From positions 173,354,001 through 173,418,000 of the forward strand of contig NC_086097.1 of NCBI RefSeq assembly GCF_963921235.1: 64,000 nucleotides of DNA, read 5' to 3'. A program made the position numbers and the translations under genes. The notes under the pieces are model-generated. The model saw only the letters and a program-made list of their open reading frames with translations, was not told where the DNA came from and did no database searches. This document shows, one piece after another, positions 24,156-64,000 of the stretch (within the stretch, counting starts at the first letter, position 1; each line of letters opens with the position of its first letter). The stretch comes from Mobula hypostoma (Eukaryota).

Positions 24156-25641
24156 AAGAAAATAATTTACCAGAAATAATTTTTATGAGGAACATTTAAA
24201 ATTGCTCCCACATTGGTTAAAAATTAACTACAGTCCACCTGGTTTAATGGCCCTATTGATACTTATTCAAGCAATTAACTATGCTATTTTGATCATTCCA
24301 GTGCCAAAGCAATTCTGATATGCTCAACTGGTTTTTTATTTGTTCATGGCTGCCAATTATCTTTGGAAACCCCTTTAATGTTCAAGAATCTTTGCTGGGT
24401 ATTGGTTAATTCTTCATGTTTAAAAAAAATCTTTAGCTAACTTTCTATCTTACTTGACGTTGTAAATATGATGTCTGCTGAAAATGCAATAGTAATTCTG
24501 CCTGCCAAACCGTACAAGTGAATTCACCAAAGTTTCGGGGCTTGATTCAAATTTAGTTGGACTCCAAGAATTATATGAACCTACTCACTAGGATCCTAAC
24601 AATTTGCAGGTAAGAGGAAAATTACTGCTGTAGGATTTAATGGTTAAATGGAAAGGAATACCAACAGAAAATAAGATAGGACTTATGAAAGGGAAATCAT
24701 AAAGGACAAACATGTTTGGATGATTTTGAGATTGCAATGAGCAGAACAGATAAACAAATAGATTAAAGAGAAACTGTGGATGTCATTTGCAATCCACATC
24801 AAACATTTGGACAAGAGGATCAAAGTATATGCTACAGAACTTTGCTAATCATCAATGTGGCATTATGGACTGTGAAAAAAAGATTCAGGGAGGTTTCAGA
24901 GTGGATAGGAAATGACACGGCAATTTGAAAATAATAACTAAATACTTAACATTATCCACCATGGCTGAAAAAAAGGATAATCAGGTCAAGCTTATCATTG
25001 TACAGAGATTTTTCCACCACCTTCCAGAAATAGCTGTATATAATTGAGTGAGTGGTAAAATAAGGGAGTATCTGAAACATTTCCTGTCCTCAAATTGCCC
25101 AAAATTGAGTAGCTACTCATTGCAGGATCTAAGTTTCACTGTGCAGATTTACAGGCTGATTTCATGAGTTCAACATTCATCTATGACAGAAAAAAGTGAT
25201 CTTGAAATGGGAGAAAATTGCAAGCCATCAACAATGCCACAATCATAAAGTTAGTGATCACAAAATTACATCATTTTAGTGAGGTATTTCTTCCTGGCCT
25301 CATACCATGCCAAGTATAGGAAAAATATTCAGATAAAAGAGTGGCTCCAAGTTTATATGGAAAATCACGTAGATTCCCTTTCAGACCTATCTGATTTTCT
25401 TGATGTTGCATGCCCCAGCAACCCAATACGCCCAGGTGTAATACCCTAATAAATCTGCCATCATGTCTACAAATTGAATTCATTTTTTTTGCATTTTTGT
25501 TTCTTCTTAGTTCATCCAGACCATTGTTGAAAGTGGAAAAAAAAACAAATAAAAGTGACACACTAATGCCAGTAACTCCCAATGTGTAATCCAAAACTAG
25601 TCTGTTTCACATTCACTCAGAATTTAGCAAGTAAAGAACCA

Positions 25642-25808
25642 AAAAATGAAATCAAATCATTAGAAAGAGGTGACATAAGGTTGGAAGGAGTTGAATCATT
25701 ATGGATTGACCTGAACTGCAAGGGTAAAAAGACCCTGATGGGAGTTATATACAAACCCCCAAACAGTAGTAAAGATGTGGCCTGCACCTCATGGTTGAGC
25801 CCACTAGG
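25642..25808 (+). repeat. 167-bp exact copy of 27148-27314 (CR1 endonuclease fragment)
   Basis: Base-by-base identical by eye, offset 1506 bp. Confidence 0.9.
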
Positions 25809-26577: not shown

Positions 26578-29492
26578 AGGGACTAATTTCCTAGTGGGAA
26601 GATCTATTAATGCTGCAGGAAAGGGCTTAAACAAGTTGCAGGGGGATGGTAACCAAAGTGCAGAACAGTTAGTAGAAAGGTTGTGGAGGCTGATGTTGGT
26701 AAGACCTCAGACAAAGTTAGGAATCAAAACATTAAGCATGGTGCAACTGGTGCGCTGAGCTGCATTTCAATGCAGTAAGTATCATTGGAAAGGCAGATAA
26801 CAGTGCTGAACATGAGGTAGATGGTTTACAAACAGAGGCAATGTGTAGTGAGGAGAGGCTGTTGATACGGCAAATTTGCAGTCAACAAGATGAGTTGCAA
26901 TGTAAAAGGCAGAAAAAAAAATCAAATTTGGTGAATAGAGGACTGAAGATGTTATATTTAATGCCGCAGTATATGGAATAAGCTAGATGAACTTGCAGCA
27001 CGGTTGCAGATGGACAGGTATGATGTTTTTGGCATCGCTGAATTACGGCTGAAAAAAGATTGTAACTGGGAACTTAATGTCCAAGGGTACGCATTGTATC
27101 AAAAGGACAGGCAGGAAGGCAGAGAGGATGGCATTGCTCTGTTGGTGAAAAATGAAATCAAATCATTAGAAAGAGGTGACATAAGGTTGGAAGGAGTTGA
27201 ATCATTATGGATTGACCTGAACTGCAAGGGTAAAAAGACCCTGATGGGAGTTATATACAAACCCCCAAACAGTAGTAAAGATGTGGCCTGCACCTCATGG
27301 TTGAGCCCACTAGGGTATCAGCTTTTCTGGATTAGGTGTTAGTGCAATGAACTGGAATTGATTAGCGACCTTAAGGTAAAAGAAGCCTTAGGGGCAAGTG
27401 TAGTATGATCAAATTCACCCTGAAATTTGAGAAGGAAAAGCTAAAGTCAGTTGTGTCTTTATTACAGTGGAGTAAAGGGAATTACAAAGGCATGAGAAAG
27501 GAGTTAGCTGGAATTGATTTGAAACGAACACTGGCAAGGATGATGGCAGAACAGCAAAAGCTAGAATTTCTGGAAGCCATTCAGCACAGGATATATACAT
27601 CCTAAAGTGGACGAAGTATTCTAAAACAAAGATGATACAACCATGGCCAACAAGAGAACTCAAAGCCAACATAAAAACCAAAGATTGGGCATAAAATAGA
27701 GCAAAAATTAGTGGGAGGTTAGAGAATTGGCAAAATTTTAAAAACTAATACAGGGCAACTAAAAATGTCATTAAGAAGGTAAAGATGGAATACGAAAGTG
27801 AGCTAGCCAGTAATGTTAAAAAGGATACCAAAAGTTTCTTCAGATACATATAGTGTAAAAGAGAGGCAAGAGTGGATATTGGACCATTGGAAAATGATGC
27901 CGGAGAAGTAGTAATGGGGGACAATGAAATGGTGGATGAATAAGTATTTTGCATCTGTGGAAAACACTAACAGTATGGATGGAAGTTCCAGGTATCAGTG
28001 GGCTTGAAATGTGTGAAGTTATCATTCCTAGAGAGAAAGTTCTTGAGTAACTGAAAGAATTGAAGGTAGATAAGTCACCTGAACAAGGTGGTGTACACTC
28101 CGGAGTTCTGAAAGAGATGGCTGAAGAGATTGTGGATGCATTCATAATGATCTTTCAAAAGTCACTAGGTTCTGGAAGACTGTAACATTGCAAATGTCAT
28201 TCCTCTCTTGAAGAAGGGAGAAAGGCAGAAGAAAGGAAAATATATACCAGTTAGTCAGACCACTGTGGTTGGGAAGATGTTGGAGTCAATTGTTAAGAAT
28301 GTGGTTTCAGGGTACTAGGAGGTACATGATGTTGGGTACTTGGATTTTGAGAAGGCTTTTGACAAGTTGCCACACATGAGGCTCCTTAACAAGCTACAAG
28401 CCCATAGTATTACGGGAAAGATCCTAGCATGGATAAAGCAGTGGCTGATTGTTAAGAGGCAAAGATTGGGAATAAAAGGAGCCTTTACTGGCTGGTTGCC
28501 AATGACTAGTGGTATTCCACAGGAGTCTGTGTTGGGACCGATTCTTTTGGTCAATGATTTGGATGATGGAATTTTTGCAGATGATATAATGATAGGTGAA
28601 GGGGCAGGTAGTTTTGAGGATGTAGAGAGGCTACAAAAGGACTTAAGACAGATTAGGAAAATGGCCAAAGAAATGGCAGATGGAAAACAGTGTCAGGAAG
28701 TGTATCGTCACGGTAGAAGAAAATTAAAGTGTTGACTATTTTCTAAATGGAGAGAAAATACAAAAATCTGAGGCATAAATCTGAGATATGAGAGTCCTTG
28801 TGCAGGAATCCCTAAAGATTTATTTGCAGGTTAAGTCTGTGATTAGGAAGGCAAATGGAATGTTAGCGTTCATTTCAAGAGGACTAGAATATAAAAGCAA
28901 GGATCTAATGTTGAGACTTTATCAAGCAGTGGTGAGGCCTCACTCAGAGTATGGTGAACAGTTTTGGGCCCCTGATCTTAGAAAGCATTGCTGAAACTGG
29001 AGAGCACTCAAAGGAGATTCACAAAAATAATTCCAGGATTGAACGGTTTGTCATATGAAGAGTGTTTGATGGCTCGGGCCTGCATTCAGAAGAAAGACAG
29101 GTGACCTCATTAAAACCTGTCGAATGGTGAAAGACTTGACAGAGTGGATGTGGAGAGGCTGTTTCCTATGGTGGGAAAGTCTAGGGTCAGAGGACACAGC
29201 CTCAGAATGGAGGGATGTTCTTTTAGAACGGAAATGACAAGGCATTTCTTTAGCCAGAGAGTAGTGAATCTGTGGAATTCTTTGCCGCCGGCAGCCATGG
29301 AGGCTAAGTCTTTATATACATTTAAGGCAGAGGCTGATAAATTCTTGATTGGTCAGGGCATGAAGGGATATGAAGAGAAGGCAGGAGACTGGGGCTGAGG
29401 GGAAAATTAGATCAGCCACGATGAAATGGTGGAGCATACTGGATGGGCCAAATGGACTAATTCTACTCCTATATCTTATGGTCTTATGGTCT
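26578..29492 (+). mobile_element. decayed CR1 LINE (ORF1 end, APE endonuclease, RT, 3' tail) with internal deletions
   Basis: GVIYKPPNS, DFEKAFDK, GIPQESVLGP, FADD; (TCTTATGG)n tail. Confidence 0.85.
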
Positions 29493-43555: not shown

Positions 43556-44100
43556 CAAAGTAAAATCAAATGGATCCTAGAAAACATAGCTTCTCATGGA
43601 AAGGGGTTAAGCTGGCCAACTAATCTTCTCTTTATAACTTGGCTTGGTGCCTTCCTGGAGGGTTCCAGACTGAACTACAAGCATCTTTGCTACAGCACTA
43701 CAGACGCCGGGAATCTATTCTTCAGTCAACAAGAATTCCTCACCAAACACTTTCAAAAATTAAACTAATTTGTTTCAACTGCTGTTGAGATATCTGTGTA
43801 GAAAGTGCTTTCCATATATTCCGACAATAATGATTACCCTTCAAAAAGCAATTCAGTGGCAGTTCAGTGACATCAAACAAATTCTAAACATTGTTTCAAT
43901 TTTCATTATCATTTATTTACTAAATATATTTATAACAGCAATTTTAAAACACATTCAATGGCCTAAACCATAACCAAGAAATATACATTTCAATACTATC
44001 ACAGCAGCTGAGGAACTTAAATTCAATTGAAATAATCTGAAATAAATAACTGTAAATAAGAAACACCTGGATTATTGTAGAAAATCTAATTAGGTTACGT

Positions 44101-44310
44101 GACAGTGATGGTAAGAATTGGAGGAGATGGGAGTTGAATGCGTGGCTGAGGAGTTGGTGCAGGGAGCAGGGTTTTAGATTTTTAGATCATTGGGATCTCT
44201 TCTGGGGAAGGTGGGACCTGTACAGATTGGATGGGTTGCACCTGAACTCGAGGGGGAGCAATATCCTTGCAGGTAGGTTTGCTAGCATGGTTCGGGAGGG
44301 TTTAAACTAA
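44101..44310 (+). pseudogene. CR1 ORF1 C-terminus (SGNH/GDSL-type esterase)
   Basis: LNAWLRSWCREQGFRFLDHW..DGLHLN..REGLN*; DxxH motif. Confidence 0.85.
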
Positions 44311-47245
44311 TTTGTGAGGGGGATGGGACCCAGAGCGATAGAGCAGTGAAAGAAGTGCATGGAGTAAAGCCAGATCTAACATACAGAGAGGCTTTGAGGA
44401 AAGAGAAGCAGAATAAACAGTGTAAAGACAGTAAGGTAGAAGGGCTGAAATGTGTGTACCTCAATGCAAGAAGCATCAGGAACAAAGGTGATGAACTGAG
44501 AGCTTGGATACATACATGGAATTATGATGTAGTGGCCATTACAGAGACTTGGCTGGCACCAGGGCAGGAATGGATTCTCAATATTCCTGGATTTCAGTGC
44601 TTTAAAAGGGATAGAGAGGGCAGAAAAAGGGGACGAGGGGTGGTATCACTGGTCAGGGATACTATTACAGCTACAGAAAGGGTGGGTAATGTAGCAGGAT
44701 CCTCTTTTGAGTCAATATGGGTGGAAGTCAGGAACAGGAAGGGAGCAGTTACTCTACTGGGGGTATTCTATAGGCCCCCTGGTAGCAGCGGAGATACAGA
44801 GGAGCAGATTGGGAGGCAGGTTTTGGAAAGGTGCGAAAATAACAGGGTTGTTATCATGGGTGACTTTAACCTCCCTAATATTGATTGGCACCTGATTAGT
44901 TCCAAGGGTTTAGATGGGGCAGAGTTTGTTAAGTGTGTCCAGGATGGATTCCTGTCACAGTATGTGGACAGGCCGACCAGGGGGAATGCCATACTAGATC
45001 TAGTACTAGGTAATGAACCGGGTCAGGTCACAGATCTCTCAGTGGGTGAGCATCTGGGGGACAGTGACCACCACTCCCTGGCCTTTAGCATTATCATGGA
45101 AAAGGATAGAATCAGAGAGGACAGGAAAGTTTTTAATTGGGGAAAGGCAAATTATGAGGCTATGAGGCTATAAGGCTAGAACTTGCGGGTGTGAATTGGG
45201 ATGATGTTTTTGTAGGGAAATGTACTATGGACATGTGGTCGATGTTTAGAGATCTCTTGCGGGATGTAAGGGATAAATTTGTCCCGGTGAGGAAGATAAA
45301 GAATGGTAGGGTGAAGGAACCATGGGTAACAAGTGAGGTGGAAAATCTAGTCAGGAGGAAGAAGGCAGCATACATGAGGTTTAGGAAACAAGGATCAGAT
45401 GGGTCTATTGAGGAATATAGGGAAGCAAGAAAGGAGCTTAAGAAGGGGCTGAGAAGAGCAAGAAGGGGGCATGAGAAGGCCTTGGCGAGTAGGGTAAAGG
45501 AAAACCCCAAGGCATTCTTCAATTATGTGAAGAAAAAAAGGATGACAGGAGTGAAGGTAGGACCGATTAGAGATAAAGGTGAGAAGATGTGCCTGGAGGC
45601 TGTGGAAGTGAGCGAGGTCCTCAATGAATACTTCTCTTCGGTATTCACCAATGAGAGGGAACTTGATGATGGTGAGGACAATATGAGTGAGGTTGATGTT
45701 TTGGAGCATGTTGATATTAAGGGAGAGGAGGTGTTGGAGTTGTTAAAATACATTAAGACAGATAAGTCCCCAGGACCTGACGGAATATTCCCCAGGCTGC
45801 TCCACGAGGCGAGAGAAGAGATTGCTGAGTCTCTGGCTAGGATCTTTATGTCCTCGTTGTCCACGGGAATGGTACTGGAGGATTGGAGGGAGGTGAATGT
45901 TGTCCCCTTGTTCAAAAAAGGTAGTAGGGATAGTCCGGGTAATTATAGACCGGTGAGCCTTACATCTGTGGTGGGAAAGCTGTTGGAAAAGATTCTTACA
46001 GATAGGATCTATAGACATTTAGAGAATCACGGTCTGATCAGGGACAGTCAGCATGGCTTTGTGAAGGGCAGATCATGTCTAACAAGCCTGATAGAGTTCT
46101 TTGAGGAGGTGACCAGGAATATAGCTGAGGGTAGTGCAGTGGATCTGATCTATATGGATTTTAGTAAGGCATTTGACAAGGTTCCACACGGTAGGCTTAT
46201 TCAGAAAGTTAGAAGGCATGGGATCCAGGGAAGTTTGACCAGGTGGATTCAGAATTGGCTTGCCTGCAGAAGGCAGAGGGTGGTGGTGGAGGGAGTACAT
46301 TCAGATTGGAGGATTGTGACTAGTGGCGTCCCACAAGGATCTGTTCTGGGACCTCTACTTCTCGTGATTTTTATTAACGACCTGGATGTGGGGGTAGAAG
46401 GGTGGGTTGGCAAGTTTGCAGACGACACAAAGGTTGGTGGTGTTGTAGATAGTGTAGAGGATTGTCAAAGATTGCAGAGAGACATCGATAGGATGCAGAA
46501 GTGGGCTGAGAAGTGGCAGATGGAGTTCAACCCGGAGAAGTGTGAGGTGGTACACTTTGGAAGGACAAACTCCAAGGCAGAGTACAAAGTAAATGGCAGG
46601 ATACTTGGTAGTGTGGAGGAGCAGAGGGATCTCGGGGTACATGTCCACAGATCCCTGAAAGTTGCCTCACAGGTGGATAGGGTAGTTAAGAAAGCTTATG
46701 GGGTGTTAGCTTTCATAAGTCGAGGGATAGAGTTTAAGAGTCGCGATGTAATGATGCAGCTCTATAAAACTCTGGTTAGGCCACACTTGGAGTACTGTGT
46801 CCAGTTCTGGTCGCCTCACTATAGGAAGGATGTGGAAGCATTGGAAAGGGTACAGAGGAGATTTACCAGGATGCTGCCTGGTTTAGAAAGTATGCATTAT
46901 GATCAGAGATTAAGGGAGCTAGGGCTTTACTCTTTGGAGAGAAGGAGGATGAGAGGAGACATGCTAGAGGTGTACAAGATAATAAGAGGAATAGATAGAG
47001 TGGATAGCCAGCACCTCTTCCCCAGGGCACCACTGCTCAATACAAGAGGACATGGCTTTAATGTAAGGGGTGGGAAGTTCAAGGGGGATATTAGAGGAAG
47101 GTTTTTTACTCAGAGAGTGGTTGGTGTGTGGAATGCACTGCCTGAGTCAGTGGTGGAGGCAGATGCACTAGTGAAGTTTAAGAGACTACTAGACAAGTAT
47201 ATGGAGGAATTTAAGGTGGGGGCTTATATGGGAGGCAGGGTTTGA
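44301..47245 (+). pseudogene. CR1 ORF2 (APE endonuclease + reverse transcriptase), broken by one 8-bp duplication at ~45153-45168
   Basis: LNARS, ITETW, YRPP, MGDFN, SDH; NYRPVSLTS, DFSKAFD, GVPQGSVLGP, KFADD; removing TATGAGGC joins ORFs 44346 and 45191 in frame. Confidence 0.92.
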
Positions 47246-48282
47246 GGGTTGGCACAACATTGTGGGCCAAAGGGCCTGTACTGTGCTGTACTATTCTATG
47301 TTCTATGTTTATTTTCTAATCCAGATTTACTGATAAACCACTTCAGATTCACTGGAAATCCAAGATGGGCAATAAATTTCAGTCTTGCCAGTGACATCCT
47401 CATTGTACAATTTTATAATGTGTCATACTACAGCAAAGAGTACCAGACAGACATATCCCAAACACAATGGGCATATCCCTCCCTATCATCGGTAATATCT
47501 ATCGGAGTAACTGCCTCAAGGAAGCAACGTCCATCATCAGAGTTCTCTACCATCTGGGCCATGTCATCTTCTCACAGCAACCACCAAGCCAGAGGTACAA
47601 AACCATAAAGTTTCACACCACCACATAAGAACCACAACCTTCATCCAACCATTTGTTTCTTGAACCAACCAGTATAACCGTAATCACCATAGTTTAGCAC
47701 TTCTATGACTACTTTGATTACTTTGCACTAAAATGAACTTCTTTGTTTTATTTGTGTTTTTTCTTGCAAAAATTGTAAAACTTATGGTTTTTGTTTGCTG
47801 CCAATGTGATGCCAAGTGTCTGCGATACTGCTTCAAAATTCTGTCATTGCCAATGTGCTTACATGTACTGTACTTGTGCATACAATAAGTTAATGAACTC
47901 ATCAAGAAAAAACCCAAGCAGAACAAAAGTCAGAACACTTCAAAATATCTGATATGGCAAGGGGAATCAACATAGCAAATAAAGAAAAGGGAAAATGCAA
48001 ATGAAAACAGAAAATAGTGGCAGAACCAGAATCCAGTTAGTCAATTCCATGGAAGTTAGAAATACAACTTCACCTCCAATTCTGCTGTCATATTTCAATT
48101 TGTTTATGTTTGCTCCATCAGTCAATATCAAATGAAGAAAGATGATAAATCCAAATTTGAAAATAGAAGCCCATCATGCTGAAATTCAAATAATTATTCA
48201 CTTTGGATAGTCTCAGCAAGCCCAGCAGCATCAGTAAAGAGCAAAACAAAATTCATATTTCAGACTGATTACCTTTTATAAG

Positions 48283-62699: not shown

Positions 62700-64000
62700 C
62701 CCTGGACATAATTCAAGAGCCAACGAGTGTTTTAATAGCTGCGAAGGAATGTACAAAAAGTGTATATTCATGCACTAGAAATGGTCAATACCAATATTAT
62801 TGCAGGCAGGTTTGCTGAAGCTGCTGGGAAGGTCTTAAACTAATTGGGATCTCTTCTGCTAACACCTTGTTGAGATCACTCCATTTTCCTCACATTCATG
62901 TGCCTATCTAAGTGTCTCTTAAAAGTCTCTAATGTTTCTACATCTACCACCACCCCAGGCAGTGCATTCCAGCACATTCTGATAAACCTCAATCAGATCT
63001 CCCATCAGCCCCCGCTACTCCTGAGAAAATGGCCCAAATATGTCCAAACTCGGATCCAGGTAATAATCTCGTAAACCTCTTCAGCATCCTCTCTGAAGTC
63101 TCAATATCCTTCCTATAATGGAGTGACTACCTGTATGCAATACCCCAGCTGTGGCCTAAATAGAGTTTTACAAAGCTACAACATAACTTCCTGAATTCTG
63201 AACTCAATGCCTTGACTAAAATGTAGGTGCCTTGTGGGAAGTGTTAAAAAACCACAAAGGTGGAAAAGACCCTGATGGGAGTTATATACAGGCCTCCGAA
63301 CAGTAGCAGGATGTGGGGTATAAATTATAAAGGGAGATAAAAAGGCATGTAAAAAGGGAAACGCTGCAATAGACATGCAGGATTTCAACAGGCAGGTAGT
63401 TTGGGAAAATGAGGGGGGTACTGAATCCCAAGAAAGCGAATTTGTAGAATGTCCATGAGATAGCTTTTTAGAGCAGCATGTCGTTGAGACTATTCTCTAT
63501 TGAGTGTTGTGTAACAAACCAGATTTGATTAGGAAGCTGAAGGTAAGGAACCCTGAGGAAGCAATGGTCACGATAGAATTCACTGTAGTTTGAGAAGGAG
63601 AAATAAAGTCATATAGGGGGCAGTGATCATGATAGAATTCACCCAACAGTTTGAGAAGAACTAAAGTCATATGCGTCAATATAAAGAGAATTACAGAGGC
63701 ATGAGAGAGGAGCTGGCCAAAATTGATTACGGTAGCAGGGATGGTGACAGACCAACAATGGCTGGAGCTCATTGGAGCAATTCAGAAGGCACAGGATAGA
63801 TACATCCCAAAGAAGTAGTAGTATTCTAAAAGGGAGAATGAAGCAACCATGACAAACAAGGGAAGTCGAAGACAGCATAAAAGCAAATGAGAGGGCATAT
63901 TATATAGCAAAAAAATAGTGGAAAGTTAGAGGATTGAAGAGCTTCTAAAAAAGCCACAAAGAGAGAAAAGATAAAATATGAAAGGAAGCTGGCCAATAAT
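62700..64000. mobile_element. mosaic of decayed CR1 pieces (ORF1 end +, 3' region -, endonuclease region +), running off the window end
   Basis: accaatattattgcaggcaggtttgct...ttaaactaa; TLMGVIYRPPNS. Confidence 0.65.

Follow-up and report, generated by a model that had tools for sequence, protein, structure and literature searches.

A conserved, in-phase U_UUA_AAC heptamer at the ORF1/ORF2 junction of CR1 LINEs suggests −1 ribosomal frameshifting

The locus described here raises the question of how ribosomes reach the second open reading frame of a CR1-type LINE that has no AUG ahead of its endonuclease domain. The window (64,000 nucleotides of Mobula hypostoma, assembly GCF_963921235.1, contig NC_086097.1, positions 173,354,001 to 173,418,000, forward strand) contains one such element, the ORF2 of which carries APE endonuclease and reverse transcriptase domains (Pfam PF03372, PF14529 and PF00078). 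An SGNH esterase domain (PF13472) was detected on the ORF1 remnant of the window copy, and the full ORF1 of 313 amino acids is present in copies L030, L016 and L019. A 3′ microsatellite tail and interspersed, 5′-truncated copies are also found, as in canonical CR1 LINEs, and the vertebrate canonical CR1 elements described in the available part of PMC13343379 share the same esterase ORF1, APE and reverse transcriptase ORF2, microsatellite tail and 5′ truncation. On this architecture, and on a by-eye likeness to CR1-labelled rows in the accessible part of Table S2 of that survey, the element appears to be a canonical CR1 LINE; its closest named ORF1 relatives come from rays. In copy L030 the element was inserted behind a 27-nt tandem array, which lengthens the ORF1 frame upstream.

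The features of the window are as follows.

44096..44310, + strand: 3′ remnant of CR1 ORF1 (SGNH esterase C terminus with the DGLH block; PF13472, E 1.4e-7)
44283..44285, + strand: TAG closing the −1 (ORF2) frame, five codons 5′ of the heptamer
44298..44304, + strand: G_GGT_TTA, second overlapping heptamer, incidental (7/14 lineages)
44301..44307, + strand: T_TTA_AAC, candidate −1 slippery site (14/14 anchored lineages)
44307..44462, + strand: AUG-less −1-frame linker from the slip site to the endonuclease
44308..44310, + strand: ORF1 stop, adjoining the heptamer (TAA in 9 lineages, TAG in 5)
44318..44328, + strand: G-rich motif (five G, two bases, three G, A), candidate stimulator
44463..47245, + strand: ORF2, APE endonuclease and reverse transcriptase (PF03372, PF14529, PF00078)
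45153..45178, + strand: 8-nt tandem duplication breaking ORF2, private to the window copy (absent from L012, L017 and L025)
47294..47318, + strand: 3′ microsatellite tail, (TTCTATG)n
26626..26645, + strand: decayed junction of another CR1 lineage (C_TTA_AAC, stop lost, G-rich motif kept)
62834..62843, + strand: decayed ORF1 end (C_TTA_AAC TAA), ORF2 not directly behind

The initial annotation had described an ORF1 ending in GAG GGT TTA AAC TAA (44296-44310), and re-reading of the sequence bore this out, including the correct phasing of both overlapping heptamers, G_GGT_TTA and T_TTA_AAC, in ORF1. The placing of ORF2 in the −1 frame was likewise confirmed: this frame opens at 44286, just past the TAG, and at the junction encodes the APE endonuclease (PF03372), with the reverse transcriptase coming next. 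The first ATG of ORF2, at 44856 (MGDFN), lies past the codons for the endonuclease Asn (44463) and Glu (44544), as had been claimed, and stands 185 codons beyond the heptamer and 170 beyond the GTG at 44346. A further ATG at 44323, inside the G-rich motif, was rejected as a start codon, being in the ORF1 frame and unconserved. Among the contigs of four sequencing runs, taken by guess to be RNA, one spans 44205-44563 without a gap and is uninformative on translation.

The window copy is itself dead, as it is 5′-truncated at about 44096 (a boundary set by comparison with copy L016) and its ORF2 is broken, and it cannot be expressed as an intact element. It belongs to a young family with 874 candidates in the 3.48 Gb genome, of which the 40 that were scored are 98-99% identical. 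The TTTAAAC word is kept in 28 of the 30 young-family copies fetched, and in the copies that are open far enough the first shared Met lies 185 codons past the heptamer. Counted from the slip site, ORF2 would contribute 976 residues.

Words of the form X_XXY_YYZ are common, with 534 on the two strands of the window and eight on the sense strand of the element, and the junction 12-mer, at two mismatches, occurs six times in the window against 7.0 expected. Because such heptamers are common, the case rests on conservation, and what stands above chance is the position of the heptamer, its phase and its retention across lineages. The persistence of TTAAAC in decayed copies, pointed out in the initial annotation, holds for the hexamer (26627-26632 and 62835-62840) but not for the heptamer, which reads C_TTA_AAC in both; as the first of them also lacks the stop, these copies add little. 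Elsewhere in the window, a stretch of CR1 endonuclease sequence with its flank, about 200 nt long, is found at two places about 1.5 kb apart (25600-25800 and 27090-27300).

Conservation was assessed across lineages of the same genome. Esterase-family and protein searches, plus 40 stretches picked from their lists, gave 169 loci, and 165 were kept after one failed the profile filter and three proved to be duplicates. Clustering on ORF1 minus its last ten codons gave 15 lineages, with six singletons merged by hand into neighbouring lineages. The esterase His motif served to anchor 14 lineages, 12 of them with five or more copies and two as single copies; the unanchored one holds two copies (L052 and L055), both of which show TTTAAACTAG. 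The search queries themselves end in LN, and a slight ranking bias is possible.

In every one of the 14 anchored lineages ORF1 ends in NNT TTA AAC TAR, at an identity between lineages of 55-91% (mean 71%) that falls to 63% at the third positions of shared degenerate codons. The codon before Leu specifies Ala, Asp, Val, Cys, Gly or Thr, and ends in T every time. By comparison, none of ten control columns with an invariant amino acid has an invariant codon, and four other all-Leu columns use three to five codons each, indicating that synonymous change, raised beforehand as a possible source of disruption, has left T_TTA_AAC intact. At the level of single copies, TTTAAACTAR is exact in 136 of the 165, counted over all lineages. 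Single invariant sites are not rare, since third positions are also invariant at 4 of 47 controls and at codon −4, and from codon −10 to codon −4 third bases are well conserved too. The heptamer G_GGU_UUA is the slippery site of L-A virus; G_GGT_TTA, put forward as a second site at this junction, is present in 7 of the 14 lineages only and was rejected as a conserved slippery site. Copy L138 (G000:C1:254391300-254393300) has a 27-nt tandem duplication holding the whole heptamer and the stop.

It could be that the motif is kept for another reason: ORF1p may need a C-terminal Leu-Asn, or the sequence may serve in RNA packaging, in ORF1p binding or as a palindromic site in the DNA. ORF2 would then be reached by internal non-AUG initiation. 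The well-conserved third positions upstream would fit this, as would the near-cognate codons of the linker, the occurrence of TTTAAACTA in the 5′ regions of two dogfish CR1 consensuses in the part of PMC13343379 available, and the IRES-type route that has been proposed for LINE ORF2 (PMC3894237, in the sections available). However, a constraint on the protein cannot fix TTA among six Leu codons, nor the T that precedes it, L2-type esterases fold without LN, and the −1 frame is open from the heptamer itself. This explanation is considered improbable.

In 12 of the 14 lineages a stop closes the −1 frame within the five codons that precede the heptamer. Downstream, the linker from the heptamer to the endonuclease Asn is 49-110 codons long and diverges freely between lineages, and its 775 codons in 11 lineages contain one stop in the −1 frame versus 65 and 95 in the other two frames. 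The earlier claim that no AUG precedes the endonuclease is correct for the lineage of the window: among the 12 lineages in which the Asn was located, this is one of the four without a Met before it. The claim does not extend to the other eight, where an in-frame linker Met occurs at the unconserved positions 3, 9, 15, 18, 18, 38, 38 and 52. Since the Met positions vary and the −1 linker stays open, no start codon is conserved and translation from the heptamer region is.

These linker AUG codons also bear on a second explanation, termination-reinitiation, in which the heptamer and the G-rich motif would hold the ribosome after it stops, and translation would resume in the −1 frame from an AUG or non-AUG codon close by, a route put forward for L1 and demonstrated for SART1. 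The Met at codon 3 overlaps the ORF1 stop as UAAUG, with the AUG in the ORF2 frame, in one of the 14 lineages (not that of the window), and UAAUG is the arrangement used by SART1 according to the available parts of PMC3894237 and PMC10275272. In the lineage of the window an AUU overlaps the stop, and AUG-independent initiation is given as the accepted view for mammalian LINE ORF2 in the accessible text of PMC5009743. Nevertheless, the codon that overlaps the stop is unconserved (ATG, ATT, GAA, GAT, AAT, AGT and others across the 14 lineages), and reinitiation leaves unexplained both why the junction is an exactly phased X_XXY_YYZ word and why QGN ends, described below, fit a second such word. 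Reinitiation, the main rival of frameshifting, is judged unlikely, if less so than retention of the motif for another reason.

The lineage ending in EDLN (L073-L084 and L142) has UAAUG as in SART1 and keeps the slippery heptamer, and provides a natural test case for frameshifting versus reinitiation. Copies L031-L060 and L073-L084 differ in their ORF1 ends, but past about codon 10-27 the linker and endonuclease of ORF2 are nearly identical in the two, a pattern that suggests swapping of ORF1 by recombination near the junction. In L061, L072, L116, L118 and L119 the linker of the window family stands behind another ORF1.

A third explanation would join the frames at the RNA level, by transcriptional slippage, splicing or editing, after which ordinary translation would yield either the fusion or ORF2 by itself. 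Short runs abound at the junction, and four copies (L070, L113, L124 and L149) have a frame-fusing insertion. If ORF2p prefers its own RNA, a preference described for LINEs, corrected RNAs should dominate among the copies, which are reverse transcripts of mobilised RNA; in 128 of 163, however, the junction shows no net indel. Joining at the RNA level is the least credible of the three explanations, with very little probability attached to it.

The junction was also followed outside this genome. Searching 1.84 billion protein representatives with a profile gave 150 best matches, of which 146 were examined, and 102 of these distant ORF1 representatives had a natural end (a His block 20-45 residues from the terminus). 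Distant esterase ORF1 proteins end in xLN or QGN, which are compatible with U_UUA_AAC or G_GGA_AAC. The final tripeptide fits X_XXY_YYZ in 30 of 33 vertebrate-CR1-type proteins, 22 of 47 others and 1 of 22 L2-type proteins, against a background of about 5%. The residue before LN lacks a T-ending codon in 1 of 45 cases versus a 16% background (p 0.004); p-values here overstate significance, as the proteins, like the lineages, are related to one another. Every one of the seven GN ends is QGN, and the heptamer in this group would, judged from protein only, be G_GGA_AAC. Named ORF1 proteins ending in xLN come from snake, tortoise, turtle, frog, stork and monitor lizard, and two predicted proteins (P0025 and P0092) slip into the −1 frame with FKL at the junction spot.

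Published vertebrate CR1 consensuses in the accessible part of PMC13343379 bear the same junction as the window element. In Table S2 of that paper, searched over the first 400 characters per cell, 17 of the 23 matches to TTTAAACTA are ORF1/ORF2 junctions by eye, a search that cannot count exceptions as it selects by the motif. By their prefixes, these rows in the available table derive from alligator, crocodile, bowfin, bullfrog, coelacanth, elephant shark, sharks, rays and halosaur, and in those of alligator and crocodile the G run again stands behind a 10-nt spacer. Six guessed esterase codon strings, independent of the heptamer, matched one row of the same part of the table, and a search for other heptamers plus a stop revealed no junction in the places displayed. 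The SquAca_CR1-18 and SquAca_CR1-3 entries, as given there, also have TTTAAACTAR upstream of ORF1, in the 5′ region, with a GGGAAAC word after it. In the part of the PMC4316615 supplement available, matches were to the 3′ end of ORF2 only, in two passages.

A metagenome scan gave five loci, two of them inspected (L085 and L086), and a scan of prokaryote genomes gave 21, of which seven were inspected and one was a LINE-like contig (L178). The distant single copies L085 and L178 have G_TTA_AAC and G_AAT_TTT, respectively, and in both the frames overlap in −1 and a Met precedes the endonuclease; with these imperfect heptamers they do not confirm the rule. The L178 contig (JBEVXT010000007.1, filed in a bacterial MAG), which has an esterase ORF and then an APE endonuclease ORF, is likely to be mis-binned animal LINE DNA; L177 and L179 are similar, and P0017, named Pseudomonas, looks like contamination of the same kind. 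The viral contigs scanned held nothing useful on the junction. A search for longer natural ORF1-ORF2 fusions returned 13 proteins, which were gene-model chimeras with no clean single-ORF lineage among them, and this is weak evidence.

The sequence 3′ of the heptamer was then considered as a source of stimulation. No hairpin conserved across lineages was found on folding 50 and 90 nt downstream of the heptamer without an explicit pseudoknot model. Folding z-scores were near 0 in most lineages, that of the window alone reaching −1.8 to −2.7, and the stimulatory stem-loop sought here following the initial annotation was rejected. What is conserved instead is a G-rich primary-sequence motif that starts 10 nt 3′ of the heptamer and keeps a fixed register, with G in 14/14 lineages at +12 to +15, +18 and +19, in 13/14 at +11 and in 12/14 at +20. 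The conserved G residues include third bases of Gly codons and the first bases of codons that vary, so it is the nucleic acid that is constrained.

Other structures involving this motif were explored. In several lineages its top pairing partner lies about 635 nt upstream, in a C-rich stretch of ORF1. When partners were swapped among 11 lineages the pairs scored no worse than the cognate ones (permutation p 0.78), and such long-range pairing was rejected. By eye, the G tracts do not yield the four conserved runs of a G-quadruplex, which was also rejected, and an Rfam scan gave one chance match only (E 0.66). Among copies of two lineages (L090-L099, L157-L171, L108, L111 and L113) the length of the G run that follows the stop is unstable, often breaking the ORF2 frame.

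One interpretation of these data, and the one we hold to be likely on comparative sequence grounds, is that −1 frameshifting at U_UUA_AAC gives an ORF1-ORF2 fusion in this CR1 LINE family. The gag-pol-type fusion first proposed for the locus is retained in respect of U_UUA_AAC, for which there is comparative support, and not in respect of G_GGU_UUA (7/14 lineages) or a hairpin, which is unconserved. Most ribosomes would stop at the end of ORF1 and release a 313-residue ORF1p, and a minority would slip back one base on U_UUA_AAC, tandem slippage of tRNA-Leu and tRNA-Asn carrying them into ORF2. The predicted product would be an esterase-linker-endonuclease-reverse transcriptase fusion of about 1,290 residues. 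The G-rich motif would act as the stimulator, most likely as a protein-binding site by comparison with the arterivirus C-rich motif, and slow termination at the adjacent stop may help. The outcome would be a high ratio of ORF1p to ORF2p, as for gag versus gag-pol. In the available part of PMC5009743, U_UUA_AAC, G_GGA_AAC and A_AAA_AAC are among the most shift-prone heptamers on mammalian ribosomes, and U_UUA_AAC is the slippery site of IBV.

A wider proposal can be made only tentatively: all esterase-type CR1 elements and many invertebrate relatives may make their reverse transcriptase as a gag-pol-like −1 fusion, switching between U_UUA_AAC, G_GGA_AAC and A_AAA_AAC, with a structure-free G-rich stimulator read by a protein (a host G-tract binder or ORF1p). 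Although this is somewhat doubtful, such a stimulator would, if real, be a new class of frameshift stimulator.

Translation of LINE ORF2 is presented as an open question in the available parts of two reviews (PMC3894237 and PMC5009743), and in most vertebrates the main retrotransposon is CR1. Should ORF2p be made as an ORF1-ORF2 fusion, annotations of CR1 ORF2 from its first Met would be wrong, 'AUG-less' CR1 copies would not be defective on that account, and assays of reconstructed CR1 would need the native junction, a compact signal of about 60 nt. A membrane-binding esterase would also be tethered to reverse transcriptase, as Gag is to Pol.

A proposal of frameshifting for CR1 was not found in the literature searched; the original CR1 papers and Repbase notes lie outside it, and an earlier remark there is possible. 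The available part of the CR1 survey PMC13343379 does not address the route of ORF2 translation and had no matches for 'frameshift', 'slippery', 'start codon' or 'overlap'. In the accessible portions of the others, PMC5009743 had no match for CR1 and PMC3905857 none for 'frameshift', and nothing relevant stood in PMC11835228, PMC4255032, PMC6609765, PMC2734521 or PMC11303007. The routes to LINE ORF2 set out in the sections of PMC3894237 available are stop-start, reinitiation, IRES and 2A, and frameshifting is not discussed in them.

The junction signal itself is real and deeply conserved, and is best read, from its sequence, as a new CR1 case of −1 recoding. Its layout is that of retroviral gag-pol and coronavirus ORF1a/1b, with a phased X_XXY_YYZ heptamer, the structural ORF first and the polymerase in the −1 frame, but those sites have a stem-loop or pseudoknot 5-10 nt downstream (PMC7939443, part available), and folding showed none conserved among the CR1 lineages of this genome. 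Non-canonical protein output is known from other LINEs, namely ORF2 reinitiation in SART1 and, as a proposal, in L1, the 2A-bearing LINEs and the gag frameshift of HeT-A (described in the available part of PMC5009743). As far as the sources extend, those elements make separate proteins or shift within one ORF, and none has a conserved slippery heptamer at the ORF1 stop. Also comparable are Dictyostelium TRE5-A and TRE3-A, APE-type non-LTR elements whose ORF2 is said to need a −1 frameshift (PMC5911963, in the part available), although they belong to a different lineage, have a different ORF1 and target tRNA genes. A parallel for the candidate stimulator is the −1/−2 frameshift in nsp2 of the arterivirus PRRSV, which, in the accessible text of PMC7939443, likewise has a slippery site, no predicted structure and a short conserved motif about 11 nt downstream. 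The PRRSV motif is C-rich and is bound by nsp1beta and PCBP, whereas the CR1 motif is G-rich and is a candidate protein-binding site only.
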